Assembly (NCBI GenBank): GCA_000991245.1
Contig: LBRD01000006.1
Location: forward strand, 39,340-103,339
Length of the DNA: 64,000 nucleotides
Origin: Parcubacteria group bacterium GW2011_GWC1_36_108
GTDB lineage: Bacteria; Patescibacteriota; Minisyncoccia; Moranbacterales; GWC2-37-73
Direction of reading: 5' to 3'
The notes under the pieces were generated by a model. The model was given only the letters and a program-made list of their open reading frames with translations. It searched no databases and had not been told where the DNA came from. Each line of letters starts with the position of its first letter. Position 1 is the stretch's first letter. Both the position numbers and the translations under genes were made by a program. Shown piece after piece: positions 12,651 through 61,945 of this stretch.

Positions 12651-12751
12651 GAGCTCATGTAACATGTAGCATATAGCATGTAGCATTTTTGAATTCAGGA
12701 ACCCAAATGCATTTTTGTTATATGTTATATGTTGTATGTTATATGTTTAAT

Positions 12752-17030: not shown

Positions 17031-17120
17031 TAGTCATGTAACATATAGCATATAGCATGCAACAAACAGTGACATCAACAATGTGTGTTTGAATTTTTGT
17101 TATATGTTGTATGTTTTATG

Positions 17121-17891
17121 TTATATGTTTTGATTTATTATTTCTGCAATTTTAACAAACTCCATTGGAATCAAGCTTTCTCTTCCAACCAAGACACCAT
17201 CCATTCCTGGATCAATGCAAAGTTGTTTGGCAGTTGCAGCTTTCACACTGCCTCCGTATAAAATCTTGATTTTTTCAGCCACTGGTTGACCAAAAGTATC
17301 GGCAAATATTTTCTTAATCAAAATCCTAACTTCCATAATTTCATCGCTGGTTGGAACACTATCACTACCAACAGCCCACACCGGTTCATATGCAATAACC
17401 ACTGTTGCAATTTTTGAAACTGGAACATCAGCAAGTCCTTCATGAATCTGTTTGATTATAACATCGGTTGTTTTTCCATTTTGTCTATCTTCAAGTGTTT
17501 CGCCTACACAACAAATTGGAGCAAGACCCGCATTTAAAATGCTATTTATTTTCATCTTTACAACCTCATTTGTTTCATTAAAATTTTTCCTTCGCTCACT
17601 GTGCCCAACAATAGCATACTCACCGCCAATGTTTTTCACCATTGGTGCAGAAATTTCACCCGTAAAAGATCCGCGATCTTCCCAGAAAATATTTTGCGCT
17701 CCTACGGAAAAATCATTTTTTTCAATTTTACCAACAAATGATTCGAGATGAATTGATGGTGGGCAAAGAACAATTTCACACTCAGAAACATTTTTTCCTT
17801 GCAACTCTTTTTTAAAAGACTCCAAATAGCGATCCCGTTCAGCAACGGTAAGAAGGTTCATTTTTAAATTTCCCACAATCAATTTACCCAT
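17121..17891 (-). CDS. tpiA: Triosephosphate isomerase
   Basis: VGNLKMN, AIVGHSERR and YEPVWAVG motifs. Confidence 0.9.
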   Translation of the reverse strand: MGKLIVGNLKMNLLTVAERDRYLESFKKELQGKNVSECEIVLCPPSIHLESFVGKIEKNDFSVGAQNIFWEDRGSFTGEISAPMVKNIGGEYAIVGHSERRKNFNETNEVVKMKINSILNAGLAPICCVGETLEDRQNGKTTDVIIKQIHEGLADVPVSKIATVVIAYEPVWAVGSDSVPTSDEIMEVRILIKKIFADTFGQPVAEKIKILYGGSVKAATAKQLCIDPGMDGVLVGRESLIPMEFVKIAEIINQNI

Positions 17892-21368: not shown

Positions 21369-21508
21369 ATTTCAAAATATCCTTTTTTGTCATTCTCAGC
21401 TTGACTGGGAATCCAGCCCTTATCAGCCTCGGTAAATTTATTATTTCAAATATGTAGTAACGATTAGTGTCGGGTCTGGATTCCCGTTTTCACGGGAATG
21501 ACAATGAC

Positions 21509-22414: not shown

Positions 22415-23053
22415 TTAAAACTCTTCAATAATATCTTCAAAAACTTTCTCCACACTTTGGTTTCCATCCACTTCAATAAGCATTCCTTTTTCTCTGTATT
22501 TTTCAATAACTGGAACTGTGACTTCATAAAAAGTTTTTAGTCTTTTGGCCACGCCATCGGGAGTGTCATCGCCTCGTTGCATCACAGGTCCACCACAAGT
22601 AGGACAAGGATCTTCATCACCGGAAATGTGTTTACCTAAAATGAAATGCCGATAGCAAACTGTGCAAGCATAACGTTTTGTGATGCGAGCAACAGATTCA
22701 TCATATGGAAGAGTAATGTAAATTGCCTTATCTATCGGCCTGTTGAGCTCTTGCAGCATTTTTTCAATAGGCTCAATTTGTCCTATTGTTCGCGGCGCAC
22801 TGTCCAATATGACGCCCTTTTGGGAAGAAACTTTTTCTAAACTATTTTTAATAACATCAACCGTGATTTCATCCGGGATCATTTCCTTATGATCATTTAA
22901 TTCTTTGATTTTCTTTCCCAACTCTGAATTTTCTCTGCCAATTTCACGAAAAATTTGCCCTGTTTCAATATGCGCAAGATTATATTTTTCAGCCAAAAGA
23001 TCTGCTTGTGTGCCCTTGCCGGAGCCTTGAGGACCGAAGATAATTAGATTCAT
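22415..23053 (-). CDS. adk: Adenylate kinase with a Zn lid (CxxC...CxxC)
   Basis: MNLIIFGPQGSGKGTQA, CTVCYRH and CPTCGG. Start trimmed because the ORF N-terminus overlaps a repeat. Confidence 0.9.
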   Translation of the reverse strand: MNLIIFGPQGSGKGTQADLLAEKYNLAHIETGQIFREIGRENSELGKKIKELNDHKEMIPDEITVDVIKNSLEKVSSQKGVILDSAPRTIGQIEPIEKMLQELNRPIDKAIYITLPYDESVARITKRYACTVCYRHFILGKHISGDEDPCPTCGGPVMQRGDDTPDGVAKRLKTFYEVTVPVIEKYREKGMLIEVDGNQSVEKVFEDIIEEF

Positions 23054-23074
23054 GCAGCATGTATCATATAGCAT

Positions 23075-23148
23075 GTAACATAAGACTCAAAGAAAAAAGC
23101 TGAATCTGTATTTTTGTTATATGTTATATGTTGTATGTTATATGTTTT
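23075..23148. repeat. Representative intergenic tandem-heptamer inverted array (CATATAG-type arm, AT spacer, TTATATG-type arm)
   Basis: CATGTATCATATAGCATGTAACAT...TTGTTATATGTTATATGTTGTATGTTATATG. Same architecture at about 19 other intergenic sites. Confidence 0.8.
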
Positions 23149-32205: not shown

Positions 32206-32282
32206 ATCTTTCTTAACTCATGGAACATGGAGCATGGAACATGCATTCTTGCTCTATGTTTTATGTTATGTGTTCTATGTTA

Positions 32283-32681
32283 TTATGCTCCTTGAAATAA
32301 TTCAATCTTATCTCCCTGTTTCAATGTTACTGTTGCTTTTTTGAATCCTGCCTTTGTCCCCATATGACGACCATATGCTTTCTTTTTAGACTTGATGTTC
32401 ACAACACTAACTTTTTCAACTTTCACACTATACATTCCCTCAATTGCCAATTTCACTTGTTTTTTTGTTGCGCTGTGGATAACCTTGAAAGTATACTTAT
32501 TGTCAGCCATTGCTTTGTGAGTCTTTTCAGTAATCCAAGGTTCAGTAAGAACACGATATGCAATATCCGAATTTTTTGCAGCAACAATCACTTCTTTTTT
32601 GTCAGCAGCCTTTTTAACTGCTTTCTTAACAGTCGGCTTTGAAGGGGTTGCTAATTCTTTTTTTTCTTCTATTACTGCCAT
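32283..32681 (-). CDS. rplW: Ribosomal protein uL23 (N-terminal extension)
   Basis: YRVLTEPWITEKTH...KVIHSATKKQVKLAIE. Confidence 0.85.
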   Translation of the reverse strand: MAVIEEKKELATPSKPTVKKAVKKAADKKEVIVAAKNSDIAYRVLTEPWITEKTHKAMADNKYTFKVIHSATKKQVKLAIEGMYSVKVEKVSVVNIKSKKKAYGRHMGTKAGFKKATVTLKQGDKIELFQGA

Positions 32682-37031: not shown

Positions 37032-37328
37032 ATAAATTGACTTACAACTAACAATTCCCAACCAACAACACACTAATGCAAACTAGCTGCACACATGTAT
37101 TGTGGTTAAAAGTTATTAGTTATGAGTTGTGAATTATTGGTTGTTAGTTGTTTGTTATAAGTTGTTAGTTATTCATAAGCCTGGCCACTGCTCATAGTGA
37201 TATCATAGCACTTACCCAATATCACTGCAAGCATCAACGGCTGTGGATAACTTGGGGTAGGTTTTAGGTGTTAGGTTGTAGCTATTAGGTTTACAAAAAA
37301 ACAGCCCTTGCGAGCTGATTTTAGAGAT

Positions 37329-39113: not shown

Positions 39114-39527
39114 TTATTTTTCTAAATTATCAACCAAAAACTTTTTCAAGCTCTCCAAATCTTTTCTCTCTGCGTCGTAAAAATATGTTTTAATGCCGAC
39201 TGACTCCGCGCTTTTGACGGCTTCGGCGCCATGTTCGAAATAAATGACATCATCTGCTTTTAGGTCAAAATGTTCCAGCATCATTTCATGGTATTTCGGA
39301 TCAGTCTTTTCGGGATCGTGTTTCAAAGTAAAAACTTCATATGGCGCATCATGCAGCTTGAATGTTTCCATCTGCTCATCATTTGCTCCGGTTAGAATTA
39401 TTTTCCTGTTTGGAAATTCCTCAAGAAGCTCGTGCATTTCTTCAAATACATTTCCATCTTCCTCGATTAATGTAAAAACCGCGTCTACTAAGATTGTTTT
39501 CATAGAATTTTTAATTATTTTTATCAA
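39114..39527 (-). CDS. Small HAD-superfamily hydrolase
   Basis: ILVDAVFTL (motif I-like), ILTGAND and a terminal D motif. Confidence 0.5.
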   Translation of the reverse strand: MIKIIKNSMKTILVDAVFTLIEEDGNVFEEMHELLEEFPNRKIILTGANDEQMETFKLHDAPYEVFTLKHDPEKTDPKYHEMMLEHFDLKADDVIYFEHGAEAVKSAESVGIKTYFYDAERKDLESLKKFLVDNLEK

Positions 39528-40054: not shown

Positions 40055-41008
40055 TTATTTTTTCAATAATAACAAAACAAGGCCAATAACTCTATCCTTG
40101 TCTTTTGGATTGCTTTCGGCAATAAGTAAAGTGAGTGCAGTAAGCGCTTCTGGGGTGATTTTTTTTCTGAAATCAAAACCAGCTTTTTGCAAAAACCAAA
40201 TAAAAGAAAACGCACCGCTTCTTTTGTTGCCATCAACAAATGGATGGTTCTTCACCACAAAATAAAGCAGATGCACAGCTTTTTCCTCGATTGTTGGATA
40301 CAAATCTTTTCCGCCAAAAGCCTGGAAAACATTTCCCACAATTCCAGCCAAACTGCTTCCCTTGCGCTCGATGGCAAAAATTTCAGTCGCCTGCCCTTTT
40401 CGAATAAGTTCTTTTTTGAGTTGTCCAATGGAATCTTCCAATTCTTCCCCGGTCAAAGCAACTTTCTTTTTTGTGGCGCCCTTAACTGGAAGCGCTTCTT
40501 TGTCATACGCATCCAATGAAAACCAGGTTCCTGCAAACATCTTCACGAGCTCCATCGCATCTCGAGCTGTGATACGGTCGTCCGACGGAAGCAACTTTTT
40601 TGTCTCCTCAACTGCAATCAAAAACTTTTCGTAATTTTGTTCAATACGGGAAGGGTTGATTACAAAGCCATTCGTAATATAGTTACGAAGAATTTTAGAA
40701 GCCCACTTTCTAAAAATTATAGCATTGCTGGAATTTGCCCTATATCCCACAGCCAGAATCATATCCAGTGAGTAAAACGACACCGGCTTATCAGAATTTG
40801 CAATGTGCATTTTTTGCACATTGCTTTTTTCATCAACTTCTTTGTTTTTTAAAATATTACCAATATGCTTTGTGACTACTGATCTTTCTAGATTAAAAAC
40901 GTCGGCGATCTGTTGCTGAGATGCCCAGATTGTTTCTTTTTTCGCATCAACAGAAAGCTCAATAGCTCCATTTTTCGCTTGATAAATTTCAATGTTTTTT
41001 TGTTTCAT
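40055..41008 (-). CDS. Fic/Doc-family protein of the RhuM type
   Basis: C-terminal HPFVDGNKRSGAFS (the Fic motif HPFx[DE]GNxR). N-terminal RhuM-like IEIYQAKNGAIELSVD...TIWASQQQIADVF. Confidence 0.75.
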   Translation of the reverse strand: MKQKNIEIYQAKNGAIELSVDAKKETIWASQQQIADVFNLERSVVTKHIGNILKNKEVDEKSNVQKMHIANSDKPVSFYSLDMILAVGYRANSSNAIIFRKWASKILRNYITNGFVINPSRIEQNYEKFLIAVEETKKLLPSDDRITARDAMELVKMFAGTWFSLDAYDKEALPVKGATKKKVALTGEELEDSIGQLKKELIRKGQATEIFAIERKGSSLAGIVGNVFQAFGGKDLYPTIEEKAVHLLYFVVKNHPFVDGNKRSGAFSFIWFLQKAGFDFRKKITPEALTALTLLIAESNPKDKDRVIGLVLLLLKK

Positions 41009-41045
41009 TTTTTAATGAATTATTGATTATAATGATATTATATCA

Positions 41046-41054
41046 CTATATATT
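41046..41054 (-). promoter_or_regulatory. Candidate extended -10 (TGATATAAT) for the Fic gene
   Basis: Minus strand reads TAGTGATATAAT about 38 nt upstream of the ATG. Confidence 0.35.
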
Positions 41055-41093
41055 TTTTATGCAATACCTAACATATTTTTTATATTAGTATTT

Positions 41094-41115
41094 AATACCT
41101 ATTTAAATACCCACC
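41094..41115. repeat. Motif copy 3, opposite orientation (AATACCTATTTAAATACCCACC)
   Basis: Direct reading. Confidence 0.8.
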
Positions 41116-41215
41116 TCGTCGCAACTGCTTCAAGTTTACTCCTATAATCCTTGATATTCAAGCATTAAAAAAGGACCGGAAAATACTATTTCCCGGTCCT
41201 GAGGCGTTGTGTGAT

Positions 41216-41404
41216 TTATTCACTGTACGATTTAAGCAATCTTGCCATCGCCCTGTGCCCGTCTGGATCGTACCTGCGATGGATCGCAGCTAGACGCCTA
41301 GTAACGTCAACACCTTCCAAAACTTTACGTCTGTCTGTTGCAGCAGCCAATGCCCAACTGAAGTTTTTGGCTCTTGGTTTTTCAGGAACTTTTTCTTTAC
41401 TCAT
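41216..41404 (-). CDS. Small basic Ala/Arg-rich protein (62 aa). GC-rich cassette gene.
   Basis: GGGAGG RBS 7 nt upstream of the MSKEKVPEKP start. Overlaps the stop of the upstream ORF (ATGA). Confidence 0.3.
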   Translation of the reverse strand: MSKEKVPEKPRAKNFSWALAAATDRRKVLEGVDVTRRLAAIHRRYDPDGHRAMARLLKSYSE

Positions 41405-41421
41405 TTTAATCCCTCCCATCT

Positions 41422-41637
41422 TCATGGCCAAGCATTTAATATTGTCTGGATTTCAGACTCCCGACATCCAAGACAATTTCCTTGACCACCACAGGTGCAA
41501 ACCCCATAATCAGGGTCGTTACGCATACGAGGCATTTCATCTGCATTCTTTCTGCAAAATCGTGCTAGCTCAAGATTCACAGTGTATGCTTGTTTTTTTT
41601 CTGGTTCAGCTTGAAATCCACGACATCCGCAATGCAT
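41422..41637 (-). CDS. Small Cys-rich protein (71 aa). GC-rich cassette gene.
   Basis: AGGAGGTG RBS immediately upstream of MHCGCRGFQ. The sequence contains CGC, CRK and CTCGGQGNCLGC. Confidence 0.3.
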   Translation of the reverse strand: MHCGCRGFQAEPEKKQAYTVNLELARFCRKNADEMPRMRNDPDYGVCTCGGQGNCLGCRESEIQTILNAWP

Positions 41638-41664
41638 AACCCACCTCCTGTGTTTTTTGTATAG

Positions 41665-41680
41665 ATTTAAATACCCACCC
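41665..41680. repeat. Motif copy 4, opposite orientation (GATTTAAATACCCACC)
   Basis: Direct reading. Confidence 0.8.
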
Positions 41681-41731
41681 AACCCAAGTCTAAACCTAAA
41701 CTGATATTTGGACAAGAAAAAGGGTTCTTTT

Positions 41732-42307
41732 TCACATGAACACATTTTCTGCATTGTTTCTATCGCGATGCCACATTTCGGGATTGATTTTTATGTATTC
41801 TCTGATTTTATTCAGTGATTCGTCGTCGCGAATTATGTGATCATAGAAACGAGGCTGCCAAGCAAAATTCATAGTTTGACCAATATGATTTATTTCAAAT
41901 GAACATCGACCCTTATACCATCTAATTATTTTTGACAAAGAATATGGGTTATTCATAGGATTATTTTTTCCCGTGATACCACCCGTAGAGACGCGATTAA
42001 TCGCGTCTCTACGCATTGCCATGTTAATATCATTTTTGCAAATTTCAATTATCCCATGAACATGATTAGGCATCACAACAAATTCATCCAAAACAATAAA
42101 TGGAAAATGATCTGGAATTCCCTTCCAACATTCTTCTGCGATTTTTCCAATTTTATTCAACACCATTTTTCCATCCACAATCTCGCCAAAAAATTCCTCG
42201 CGATTTTTTGTGCAGATAGTCACGAAATACATCCCATTTTGAGAATAATCATAACCCTCTAATCTTGCAGATTTAATTGTGTATTTATTTTTAAATTTTT
42301 CTTGCAT
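41732..42307 (-). CDS. HuH tyrosine transposase, IS200-like / REP-associated (RAYT) type
   Basis: HuH motif MPNHVHGII and a downstream IIRWYKGRCS (Y-KG-S pattern). No tnpB partner. REP-like palindromes sit inside the gene and upstream. Confidence 0.65.
   Translation of the reverse strand: MQEKFKNKYTIKSARLEGYDYSQNGMYFVTICTKNREEFFGEIVDGKMVLNKIGKIAEECWKGIPDHFPFIVLDEFVVMPNHVHGIIEICKNDINMAMRRDAINRVSTGGITGKNNPMNNPYSLSKIIRWYKGRCSFEINHIGQTMNFAWQPRFYDHIIRDDESLNKIREYIKINPEMWHRDRNNAENVFM
41985..42012. repeat. REP-like 28-bp perfect palindrome GTAGAGACGCGATTAATCGCGTCTCTAC (copy inside the RAYT coding sequence, in frame)
   Basis: Direct reading. Identical to the copy at 42400-42427. Confidence 0.85.
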
Positions 42308-42399
42308 TTTTGTTTATTTTATATATCCATTATTGCATAAAAATTAATATAACAAAAAACGATTTCATTAGGAAATCGTTTTTTGTATAGAAACGTTGC

Positions 42400-42427
42400 G
42401 TAGAGACGCGATTAATCGCGTCTCTAC
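42400..42427. repeat. REP-like 28-bp palindrome, second copy, between fusA and the RAYT gene
   Basis: Direct reading. Confidence 0.85.
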
Positions 42428-42440
42428 CACAAATTGAAAT

Positions 42441-44534
42441 TTATTTTTTAGCAATAATCTCATCAGCAACATTCTTTGGAACTTCTGAATAATTTGAAAA
42501 TTCCATTGAATAACTGGCGCGTCCTTGAGTCATTGATCGCATTTGAGTTGCGTAACCAAACATATTTGCAAGAGGAACTTCTGATTCAATTTCTTTCACG
42601 CGAGCGTTTCCTTCTCCGCGATCATTGATTTCTTTGATCATTCCACGACGTGAGTTGATGTCACCAACAATGTCTCCCATAAATTGTTCTGGGCAAGTCA
42701 CTACCACTTTCATGATAGGTTCAAGAATAACTGGGTTGGCGCGCTTTACTGCTTCCTGCACTGCCATTGAACCAGCGATTTTGAAAGCTGCTTCGTTGGA
42801 GTCAACTTCATGGAAGGATCCGTCATACAAAGTTACAACCACATCAACCATTGGATATCCAGCCAAAACTCCATTTTCCAAAGCTTCCTTGGCTCCAACA
42901 GAAATAGGTTTGATGTATTCTTGTGGAATAACACCACCTTTAATTTCGTCAAAGAATTCAAAGCCTTTACCTTTTTCTTCTTGAGGACGAACTTTAAGCC
43001 AACAATGACCATACTGTCCGCGACCTCCAGATTGTTTAACATATTTTCCTTCAGCTTGAGCTTCAGCTTTGATTGTTTCGCGATATGCAACTTGAGGCTG
43101 ACCGATATTTGCTTCAACACCAAATTCTCGTTTCATACGATCAACAATAATATCAAGATGAAGTTCACCCATTCCTGAGATAATCGTTTGTCCTGATTCT
43201 TCATCAGTGCGAAGTCGTAGTGTTGGGTCTTCGCCAGCAAGTTTGCGAAGAGCAACTCCCATTTTTTCTTGATCAGCTTTTGTCTTTGGTTCAACTGCAA
43301 TATCAATCACAGGTTCTGGGAAAACAATATTTTCAAGTTGAATTGGGTTTGCTTCATCACAAAGAGTGTCTCCAGTTGTTGTATTCTTAAGTCCAACCAA
43401 AGCTCCAATTCCACCAGCGCGAATCTCATCAATTTCTTCACGATGATTTGCATGCATTTGAAGAATTCGTCCAATTCTTTCTCTTTCTCCATTGGTTGAA
43501 TTGATAACATATGAGCCAGCTTTAAGTGTTCCTGAATATACGCGGAAGAATGTTAGTTGTCCTACAAATGGATCAGTTGCGACTTTGAAAGCCAAAGCAG
43601 AAAATGGTTCGTTGTCATCAGCGTGACGTTCAATTTCCAATTCTGTTTTTGGATCAATTCCTTTGATAGAAGTAACATCCAATGGAGATGGAAGATAATC
43701 AACCACAGCATCCAAAACTAATTGCACACCTTTGTTACGAAGAGCAGTTCCAGTAAAAACTGGCACAAGTTTTGCATCGATAACTCCTTGGCGTAGTGCA
43801 ACTTTCAATTCATCAATAGAAATTTCCTCTCCGTTTAAATATTTTTCAGTCAAAGCATCATTGGTTTCAGAAACTTTTTCAATCATTTTTTCTCTCCAAG
43901 CTTGCGCCTTTTCCAAAAGCTCTGCAGGAATTTCACTTTCAACCACGATTTCACCCATCGGACCATCAAAAGAATATGCTTTCATTTTGATCAAATCAAC
44001 CACGCCAGAAAAATCATTACGTTCTCCGATTGGCATTTGAAGAGCGATTGCATTTGGGGTTAAACGATTCCAAATTGAATTGATCACGTAATCAAAATCA
44101 GCACCTTCTTTGTCAATCTTATTGATAAAACAAATTCGAGGCACCTTATATTTGTCAGCTTGACGCCAAACAGTTTCAGATTGTGGCTCAACACCTTCTT
44201 TACCATCAAAAATAACAACAGCACCATCAAGCACTCGTAGTGAGCGTTCAACTTCTACTGTGAAGTCCACATGTCCCGGGGTGTCAATAATATTAATTGG
44301 ATGACCCTTCCAGAAACATTTGGTTGCAGCGGATGTGATGGTGATTCCACGCTCCTGTTCTTGAGCCATCCAGTCCATTGTGGCTGAGCCATCATGAACT
44401 TCACCAATCTTATGAGTGATTCCAGTATAAAACAAAATACGCTCAGTGGTTGTTGTTTTTCCACCGTCGATATGAGCAATAATACCAATATTTCTTAATT
44501 TTGCGATTTCACTTTCTGTGGATACTATAGACAT
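42441..44534 (-). CDS. fusA: Elongation factor G
   Basis: [20 protein letters not shown] and a full five-domain length (697 aa). Confidence 0.95.
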
Positions 44535-50471: not shown

Positions 50472-50767
50472 TTTCCACATTTCTTTTTCCGCAAAAGAAA
50501 CGTGGAGCAAAGAAAACTCGCACCTGATGAAGGTACTGTGGCAAAAACTTCGCTCTTCGCTAAAATTTACACTTCGCGCCTACGCTTGCTAGCGGGCGCT
50601 ACGTTTTAAAATTTCTTAACGCGAAATCGCTTGTTTTTCGCCTACGTACTTCATATGGTGCAAAGGGAATGCGGGATGCAAATGCAACTAAGTAAGAGTG
50701 AGAATACTTTTTATTTTTTCGCTTGGAAGAGCACTTCCACGGGAAAAAATAAAAATGTATTCGAACG
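50472..50767. repeat. Composite intergenic repeat element (R1 module, 92-nt insertion, R2 hairpin module)
   Basis: Homologous at roughly 85-90% identity to 54661-54892 apart from the insertion. Confidence 0.8.
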
Positions 50768-54660: not shown

Positions 54661-54892
54661 TTTCCACATTTCTTTTTCCCGCAAAAAGAAACCTGGAGGA
54701 AAGAAAAGCTCGCACCGGATGAAGATACTGTGGCAAAAACTTCGTTCTTCACTAAAATCAAAGGGATGCGGAATGCAAAAAAAGCAAGAGTGAGAATGAT
54801 TTTTGTTTTTTCGCTTAAAACAAGTCTCATTGGCGTTATGTCAAAAGTTGCAATTGTTTTTCTGTGACAAAAACAAAAAGGCATTCTCACGA
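54661..54892. repeat. Composite intergenic repeat element (R1 plus R2 with a nested insertion)
   Basis: See 50472-50767. The R2 loop carries the insert AAAACAAGTCTCATTGGCGTTATGTCAAAAGTTGCAATTGTTTTTCTGTGACAAAAAC, which is also present at 61871-61927. Confidence 0.8.
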
Positions 54893-58480: not shown

Positions 58481-58512
58481 TTTTTCAATATTATATTAAA
58501 TTAACTGGATGT

Positions 58513-58539
58513 GTCATTCCCGTGAAAACGGGAATCCAG
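58513..58539. repeat. Hairpin repeat GTCATTCCCGTGAAAACGGGAATCCAG
   Basis: Reverse-complement copy at 21476-21502. Variant at 21389-21419. Confidence 0.8.
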
Positions 58540-61753: not shown

Positions 61754-61945
61754 CTTCTTGATTAAAATGCTGTTTTAATAACAAGGAGTGAAAATACTTT
61801 TTATTTTTTCACTTGCACCCTCCGGGTATATATTGTCTGGACAAAATCAAAGATTTTGAAAGCCAATTAAAACAAGTCTCATTGGTGTTATGTCAAAGGT
61901 TGCAATTGTTTTTCTGTGACAAAAATAAAAATGTATTCTCACGAC
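61754..61945. repeat. Partial R1 tail plus R2 hairpin module with a nested insertion, downstream of nrdD
   Basis: GAGTGAAAATACTTTTTATTTTTTCACTTGC...AAAACAAGTCTCATTGGTGTTATGTCAAAGGTTGCAATTGTTTTTCTGTGACAAAAATAAAAATGTATTCTCACGA. Confidence 0.75.

Follow-up and report, generated by a model that had tools for sequence, protein, structure and literature searches.

The 64,000-nucleotide stretch of DNA analysed here (the window; positions 39,340 to 103,339 of contig LBRD01000006.1 of the Moranbacteria member Parcubacteria group bacterium GW2011_GWC1_36_108) carries a gene for a REP-associated tyrosine transposase (RAYT, or TnpAREP) together with two identical copies of a 28-bp palindrome, one of them shortly upstream of the gene and the other in frame inside it. 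The palindrome is a genuine repetitive extragenic palindromic (REP) sequence of the GTAG type, dispersed in genomes of many phyla. We consider it likely that this is a REPtron-like locus of subclass 2.4 of the TnpAY1 classification (RAYT Group 4), that is, a single-copy, fixed HuH-Y1 gene with its two cognate REPs, and that the internal REP is an insertion that the protein tolerates. A REP in frame within its own RAYT gene is already known; what is new is an example from the Candidate Phyla Radiation (CPR)/Patescibacteria.

The palindrome and its two copies

The palindrome, GTAGAGACGCGATTAATCGCGTCTCTAC, is perfect over its whole 28 bp and is present in the window at 41985-42012 and again at 42400-42427, with 387 nt between the two copies. 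It has the form of a double-foot REP, in which a GTAG foot at one end faces its complement CTAC at the other and the whole folds as a 12-13-bp hairpin. The calculated folding energies of the 28-mer are -16.3 kcal/mol for the single-stranded DNA (ssDNA) hairpin (z -7.9) and -28 kcal/mol for the RNA hairpin (z -6.0). It consists of one palindrome, symmetric throughout, and so lacks the structure called a REPIN (two inverted REPs with a short spacer). Elsewhere in the 64-kb window there is no third match to GTAGAGACGCGATTAATCGCGTCTCTAC at up to 3 mismatches (0 are expected in shuffled sequence), no REP half-site and no further perfect palindrome of at least 20 nt, and the same scan found no REP hairpin downstream of the RAYT gene. 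Both REPs and their orientation are unchanged in five independent assemblies of the source organism, so the pair is not an assembly artefact.

The internal copy extends from bases 2-3 of codon R99 through bases 1-2 of codon T108, and the protein there reads MAM-RRDAINRVST-GG with its frame kept. An earlier reading made from the DNA letters alone (the sequence-only reading) had described two identical copies of a perfect 28-bp GTAG palindrome, one of them encoding RRDAINRVS without breaking the frame, and this description is accurate. It had also put the upstream copy 90 nt ahead of the gene; that copy is present, and its distance to the ATG is 92 nt.

A slightly longer unit was considered and rejected. 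The two copies can be extended to a 31-nt inverted repeat (TGC-REP and REP-GCA), which might have been the true unit or might have bounded an invertible or excisable 381-nt segment. We attribute it to chance, as about 35 same-locus REP pairs elsewhere share mostly 0-2 flanking nt in either orientation, and the few longer flank matches among those pairs follow no consistent pattern.

The protein is a RAYT

The 191-residue protein matches the Pfam family PF01797 (Y1_Tnp) with 36.7 bits against a gathering threshold of 23, the aligned part being its C-terminal half (residues 120-173), and REP_Tyr_transpos is its top-scoring NCBIfam family. It has 6303 homologues, many of which bear the name 'REP element-mobilizing transposase RayT'. 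Among the invariant residues when 40 of these homologues are aligned (A1 below) are H82, H84, K132, W150, Q151, Y171 and N175. The A1 profile matches E. coli TnpAREP (PDB 4ER8) such that WQPRFYDHIIR...EYIKINP of the window protein is aligned with WQPRFWEHAIR...DYIYINP, and the AlphaFold (AF2) model, whose mean predicted local distance difference test (pLDDT) score is 79.5, resembles 4ER8 most closely among PDB entries (E 3.7e-7), with IS608 and ISDra2 TnpA next. From these alignments and the residue roles (catalytic Tyr, Asn as third metal ligand and GTAG-recognition block) given by Quentin, Siguier, Chandler and Fichant 2018 (BMC Genomics 19:475, PMC6006769; Quentin et al. below), Y171 is predicted to be the catalytic Tyr, N175 the third metal ligand, and W150, Q151, D156, H157 and R160 the block that reads the GTAG foot. 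The protein ends 15 residues past the Y motif (residues 171-176) and has no further Pfam domain and no C-terminal tail domain.

The sequence-only reading had recognised the HuH motif in NHVH, which lies at residues 81-84 and whose two His residues are both invariant in A1. It had looked for the catalytic Tyr in WYKGRCS, and there it was mistaken: Y131 of that motif is F in many homologues and is therefore not the nucleophile, K132 is the only invariant residue of the motif, and the invariant Tyr is Y171 in EYIKINP. Its designation 'RAYT/IS200-like' is right as to RAYT/TnpAREP and applies to IS200 only at the level of the superfamily, because the motif is Y---NP and not Y---Q.

The internal palindrome behaves as an insertion

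Is the internal palindrome a conserved part of the protein or something placed into it? Comparison was made with 80 homologous metagenome loci chosen by protein similarity alone, and with a wider set of 88 full-length loci made up of these 80 and 8 RAYT-homologue loci from a genome scan. Among the 80 loci, 42 have an internal palindrome with perfect feet, 11 have imperfect ones only and 27 have none detectable. The distance from the HuH motif to WQ ranges from 57 to 132 residues in these homologues (71 in the window protein), and it is between these two motifs that 46 of the 52 internal copies of the wider set lie, just 3 of the 52 lying ahead of the HuH motif in relatives. In A1 the region from the HuH strand to K132 varies in length by more than 100 residues and is built up from palindromes translated in one or the other open frame: 'RDAINRVST', 'QDALKCVST' and 'DEALPRLY' represent one frame, 'VETQFIAS' and 'VETQNFASL' the other. 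In the AF2 model residues 95-116, which hold the internal REP, form a loop with pLDDT below 50 (predicted disordered) between strand 82-89 and helix 124-142.

The codon offsets of the perfect internal REPs in the 80 loci are restricted in a simple way: 30 are read as GTA GAG.. ('VET..'), 12 as xGT AGA.. ('RDA..') and 0 in the third offset, which is not used because that frame reads TAG, a stop. The 80 loci contain 28 distinct cores (for example ...GACGAGGCAATGCCTCGTC..., ...GACGTTGCATGCAACGTC... and ...GACGCAAAATTTTGCGTC...) in which compensatory changes keep the arms complementary. The internal and flanking copies of one locus also vary together: they differ by at most 1 nt in 8 of 13 loci, as against 6% of 785 pairs taken across loci. 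The number of copies in the loop runs from none to several per homologue, an Algibacter protein having five in tandem. Decayed remnants adjoin perfect copies, and there are tandem arrays of half-arms (VETLHC x3, VETQNI x4), so that repeated gain and decay are indicated. The alignment thus removes the internal segment from the conserved protein motifs and bears out the proposal of the sequence-only reading that the enzyme's own (presumed) substrate has been inserted into its gene, since the loop palindromes vary in number, frame and core among homologues.

These observations bear directly on another explanation, that RRDAINRVST is a conserved functional peptide and that the palindromy of its DNA and the upstream copy are incidental. 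'RDAINRVST' followed by 'GGITG' does recur in many close homologues, as that explanation would have it. We nevertheless find it hardly credible, since the other frame, read as VETRLIASL or VETQFIAS, is used in 30 of the 42 cases, the cores differ while their arms remain complementary, the loop is modelled with pLDDT below 50, and many phyla have the identical 28-mer in intergenic DNA and within genes of other kinds (below).

Arrays of short units were seen in the HuH-WQ loops of four metagenome RAYT loci (L148, L149, L184 and L155), where the repeated units are VETQNI (x4), VETLHC (x3), QQNFAS (x3) and GRDV (x3) followed by (TN) x13. Such arrays of half-palindromes and short units point to slippage, or to repeated rounds of cleavage and rejoining at REP arms.

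The density of double-foot palindromes around RAYT genes falls off steeply with distance. It is 0.90/kb inside the gene and 0.78/kb within 200 nt of it, drops to 0.07/kb at distances of 201-500 nt and to at most 0.02/kb between 0.5 and 2 kb, and is 0 in the 147 kb surveyed that lie farther away than 2 kb, so the gene and its adjacent 200 nt are enriched ~50-100-fold over DNA 0.5-2 kb away. The arrangement in the window, one copy internal and one 92 nt upstream, is therefore typical.

The same 28-mer in other genomes

Species-representative genomes contain the exact 28-mer in at least 120 stretches, several genomes having it more than once. The matches listed include Nostoc, Calothrix and Scytonema (Cyanobacteria), many Bacteroidota, Moranbacteria, other CPR, Altimarinota, Crenothrix, Methylococcales, Proteobacteria, Myxococcota, Spirochaetia and Abditibacteriaceae. 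A RAYT homologue is present in 9 of the 120 listed stretches, and 111 are without one. The copies are mostly extragenic: the median stop-free stretch that covers them is 90 aa (359 aa at random positions), and 29% of them lie in open reading frames (ORFs) of at least 200 aa, compared with 74% of random positions. A minority are in frame in real genes and are read as RDAINRVST or VETRLIASL. In other CPR genomes the former peptide is found in RecG, UvrC, an RNase H-like protein and MnmA (loci L007 of Moranbacteria UBA4824, L059 of Moraniibacteriota, L018 of Parcubacteria and L025 of Peribacteria).

Two of the stretches with the 28-mer have further peculiarities. The RecG of L007 contains an additional odd low-complexity insert, GMSGPASTRGDNRSSTRLDSARQARGG. 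In an 8-kb locus of Bacteroidales bacterium UBA1715 (L009, DCIX01000041.1) a different double-foot REP, GTAGAGACGGTGTGCACACCGTCTCTAC, is present nine times, twice within a RAYT gene, and there are in addition one copy of the window 28-mer and a second RAYT-like gene; the locus is a dense REPtron with two REP types.

Relationship to known systems

The work of Quentin et al. (PMC6006769) describes subclass 2.4 as low-copy-number proteins of median length 194 aa with the motifs NH[IFV]H, WQ and YIxNNP, an 8-aa insertion at the end of alphaB, an insertion variable in length and sequence between beta3 (the HuH strand) and alphaC, and no conserved C-terminal tail domain. The associated REPs are 'long' or 'double foot' (5' GT[AG]G, 3' C[TC]AC) and lie within +/-1000 nt of the gene; a REP in frame inside its own RAYT gene is presented there as a hallmark of the subclass, and the variable loop is modelled as a peripheral extension that probably affects activity little. 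Table S1 of the same work gives the 28-nt double-foot REPs GTAGAGACGCACGGCCGTGCGTCTCTAC and GTAGAGACAAGGCATGCCTTGTCTCTAC, whose GTAGAGAC feet are those of the window REP, for 2.4 genes of Chloroflexus aggregans and of an organism coded 'AesuA01'; the exact window 28-mer was not found in the supplement text that was searched, in which close variants are present. Subclass 2.4 corresponds to RAYT Group 4 of Bertels et al. 2017 (PMC5581495), which has low numbers of flanking 16-mers, about 14 per replicon.

When set against this account, the window protein has NHVH, WQ and Y---NP, 191 aa to the median 194, and a variable insertion between the HuH strand and alphaC with a REP between H84 and Y171, and its gene has 92 nt upstream of it a 28-nt double-foot REP with the feet GTAGAGAC...GTCTCTAC. 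Since NHVH, WQ, the double-foot REP and the in-frame copy match the 2018 description, the locus is an instance of the published pattern. It differs in its host, a member of the CPR/Patescibacteria, a group that is not among the taxa named in the portion of PMC6006769 used here, in its Y motif, YIKINP where the paper has YIxNNP, and in having one flanking REP, located upstream, and no dispersed copies in 64 kb. A literature search found no paper linking RAYTs of this kind with CPR/Patescibacteria.

E. coli TnpAREP (RayT/YafM; subclass 2.2, RAYT Group 2) is the top structural match, and its WQ..(E/D)H..R GTAG-recognition block and Y---NP are kept in the window protein. The E. coli REPtron is likewise a single-copy chromosomal gene beside its own REPs, with presumed binding of an ssDNA hairpin and cleavage by Tyr. 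The two differ in that the HuH motif is HMH in 4ER8 (DHLH across subclass 2.2), identity between 4ER8 and the window protein is ~20%, and in E. coli REPs one GTAG foot stands 5' of a hairpin that is imperfect and bulged, and these REPs are not known inside the gene. There are hundreds of REPs per E. coli genome. The TnpA proteins of the IS200/IS605 family (IS608, ISDra2) share the HuH-Y1 fold and the recognition of subterminal ssDNA hairpins; their Y---Q motif, end hairpins outside the gene, multiple identical copies and, often, tnpB are not seen at the window locus.

The Rickettsia palindromic elements (RPEs) are another case of short palindromic repeats that lie in frame within protein-coding genes. 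In-frame intragenic REPs are tolerated in protein-coding genes, often those of DNA repair or replication (Di Nocera et al. 2013, PMC3733652), and the 28-mers that lie in frame in CPR genes for RecG, UvrC and RNase H resemble these. The window REP differs from both the REPs of that study and RPEs in that its host gene is the presumed mobilising enzyme itself.

A proposed mechanism and its alternatives

The mechanism proposed here is modelled on E. coli TnpAREP and IS608 TnpA. A REP folded as a hairpin in single-stranded DNA would be bound by the enzyme, its GTAG foot would be read by the W150/Q151/D156/H157/R160 block, and Y171 would cut and rejoin the DNA with the metal held by H82, H84 and N175. 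New REP copies would be laid down mainly in and beside the enzyme's own gene, and a copy falling within the gene would survive only in the structurally permissive loop and in either of the two stop-free frames. The window insert would then lengthen by ~10 residues (RRDAINRVST) the low-confidence loop that joins the HuH strand to the following helix, probably with little effect on the protein.

Several observations weigh against a subclass 2.4 REPtron whose internal REP is a tolerated insertion. As regards the class, the NCBIfam equivalog model NF047646 (REP_Tyr_transpos) scores 73.5 bits (E 1.5e-20, residues 21-176), under its cut-off of 80, and the fourth residue of the Y motif YIKINP is I where the published motif is YIxNNP, although the class-2 signature Y---NP is present and the homologues have YIxxNP. 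We know of no subclass 2.4 enzyme with demonstrated activity. The 64-kb window has just two REP copies, both at the RAYT locus, which leaves a dispersed REP population in this organism conjectural. As regards insertion, 28 nt is not a multiple of 3, so that an in-frame insertion takes 2 extra bases or 1 fewer, and neither a conserved flank nor a target duplication was found around the REPs (109 genomic copies and the same-locus pairs); the 109 copies show a weak preference for T (45%) at position -1 and no target motif. Finally, internal REPs are commoner (42 of 80 loci) than flanking ones (10 of the 53 loci with adequate flanks, at least 500 nt), and they stay perfect though the proteins are just 40-60% identical, which could mean maintenance rather than mere tolerance.

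The last two of these points are also arguments for a different explanation, a functional internal copy, which the sequence-only reading had offered as its alternative. In it the internal REP is a cis element kept by selection or gene conversion because it serves as a home binding or cleavage site, in autoregulation through ssDNA or mRNA, or as a donor copy. The density of REPs in the ~100-nt loop is above that in adjacent intergenic DNA, at least a remnant persists in nearly all close homologues, and the mRNA hairpin is strong (energy above). We think this explanation unlikely, given that the 27 homologues without a detectable palindrome keep all the catalytic motifs, that copy number varies from none to several with decayed copies next to perfect ones, which looks like turnover, that both frame and position vary, and that RecG, UvrC and other genes tolerate the same REP equally well. 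Quentin et al. (PMC6006769), too, regard the loop as a periphery that probably matters little for activity. The excess of internal over flanking copies nonetheless leaves some small room for a maintained, functional internal copy. The stronger proposition that the internal REP is the system's maintained primary site, a self-encoded recognition hairpin for autoregulation or a donor or template of new REPs, we regard as improbable; if true, it would account for that excess, for the perfection of the palindromes in proteins that have diverged to 40% identity, and for the presence of one 28-mer across phyla. A tolerated insertion at a subclass 2.4 REPtron thus remains the reading that we prefer.

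The locus and its neighbourhood

The features of the locus are collected in Table 1. Read along the minus strand, the fusA stop codon (42441-42443) is followed after 13 nt by the upstream REP (42427-42400), after a further 13 nt by a terminator-like hairpin (42386-42352), and then by a 44-nt spacer and the RAYT ATG at 42307. No convincing promoter was found in a scan from the terminator to the ATG, no Shine-Dalgarno sequence precedes the ATG, and an Rfam search of 41000-43000 gave sub-threshold chance matches only.

The RAYT protein is 100% identical to US57_C0011G0070 of Candidatus Moranbacteria bacterium GW2011_GWC2_37_73, and in 24 contigs from several projects that encode the identical protein the context is always rpsL-rpsG-fusA-RAYT-two small ORFs-RhuM/Fic. 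This fits a fixed single-copy ('domesticated') chromosomal gene rather than a hopping insertion sequence (IS), and bears on a further possibility, that the locus is an active IS of the IS200/IS605 type with the two palindromes as its left- and right-end hairpins. The HuH-Y1 fold common to IS608 and ISDra2 TnpA, hairpins that open with a conserved tetranucleotide and a weak match to the NCBIfam transpos_IS200 model all point in that direction. The score of that match is, however, 18.4 bits, far under the cut-off of 55, Y---NP stands in place of Y---Q, and one hairpin is in mid-gene and not beyond the 3' end, downstream of which there is none. Moreover, the identical gene sits in a single fixed context after fusA in all 24 contigs, and no tnpB-like gene adjoins it, as the sequence-only reading had noted. 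An active IS is accordingly very improbable.

Table 1. Features of the RAYT locus in the window (positions are those of the 64,000-nucleotide stretch)
Feature	Position	Strand	Basis
RAYT/TnpAREP gene, 191 aa, HuH-Y1 nuclease, subclass 2.4-like	41732..42307	-	ORF; Pfam Y1_Tnp; homologues; AF2 model with best match 4ER8
Internal 28-bp double-foot REP, in frame, codons R99-T108, peptide RRDAINRVST	41985..42012	.	Sequence; palindrome search; hairpin energies
Upstream identical 28-bp double-foot REP	42400..42427	.	Starts 13 nt past the fusA stop, ends 92 nt before the RAYT ATG
HuH motif N81-H82-V83-H84, metal ligands	42056..42067	-	Sequence; H82 and H84 invariant in A1; on model strand 82-89
W150-Q-P-R-F-Y-D156-H157-I-I-R160 block	41828..41860	-	Homologous to GTAG-binding W94/Q95/E100/H101/R104 of 4ER8; profile alignment to 4ER8 residues 90-122
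Y motif Y171-I-K-I-N175-P, predicted catalytic Tyr and third metal ligand Asn	41780..41797	-	Invariant in A1; aligns with Y115/N119 of 4ER8
Intrinsic-terminator-like hairpin and T-run, presumed fusA terminator	42352..42386	-	Between the upstream REP and the RAYT start
fusA (elongation factor G, EF-G), upstream neighbour	42441..44534	-	ORF; Pfam domains on syntenic loci; upstream REP in the fusA 3' untranslated region

Downstream of the RAYT gene, on the minus strand at 41216-41637 and 40055-41008, are two ~70-aa ORFs and then a RhuM and Fic/DOC protein. The two small ORFs have no Pfam match; one of them is Cys-rich, with a strong AGGAGGTG ribosome-binding site ahead of its start. The small-ORF and RhuM/Fic block is located between fusA and a peptidase S51 gene.

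Other repeats in the window

The window contains three further sorts of repeat. An unrelated 28-nt sequence, CTGGATTCCCGTTTTCACGGGAATGACA, has two perfect matches in inverted orientation (21476-21503 and 58512-58539) and forms a hairpin, ATTCCCGT-GAAA-ACGGGAAT, that is REP-like and without a GTAG foot. Heptad-repeat intergenic elements, each with an arm like CATGTAACATATAGCATATAGCATG, a ~25-nt spacer and a roughly complementary arm TTGTTATATGTTGTATGTTTTATGTTATATG, lie at ~12655-12749, 17034-17131, 23050-23148 and 32218-32283, with related arms at 37118, 46667 and 46792 (at least 4-7 copies in 64 kb). Direct repeats of 40-80 nt and 84-94% identity occur between 50 and 62 kb (54815-54892 with 61867-61944, 50513-50566 with 54705-54758, and 50689 with 54781 and 61779).

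Significance

With this locus the range of subclass 2.4 and of its 28-bp double-foot REP comes to include the CPR/Patescibacteria, and the conceptual gain is small. The comparison does add quantitative detail on the strict use of the two stop-free frames, the co-variation of internal and flanking copies, the concentration of REPs at the gene and the occurrence of one exactly identical 28-mer across many phyla. Being small and having a perfectly symmetric presumed substrate, the protein would lend itself to the study of how RAYTs read a base-paired GTAG foot and of whether a self-inserted REP has any part in regulation.

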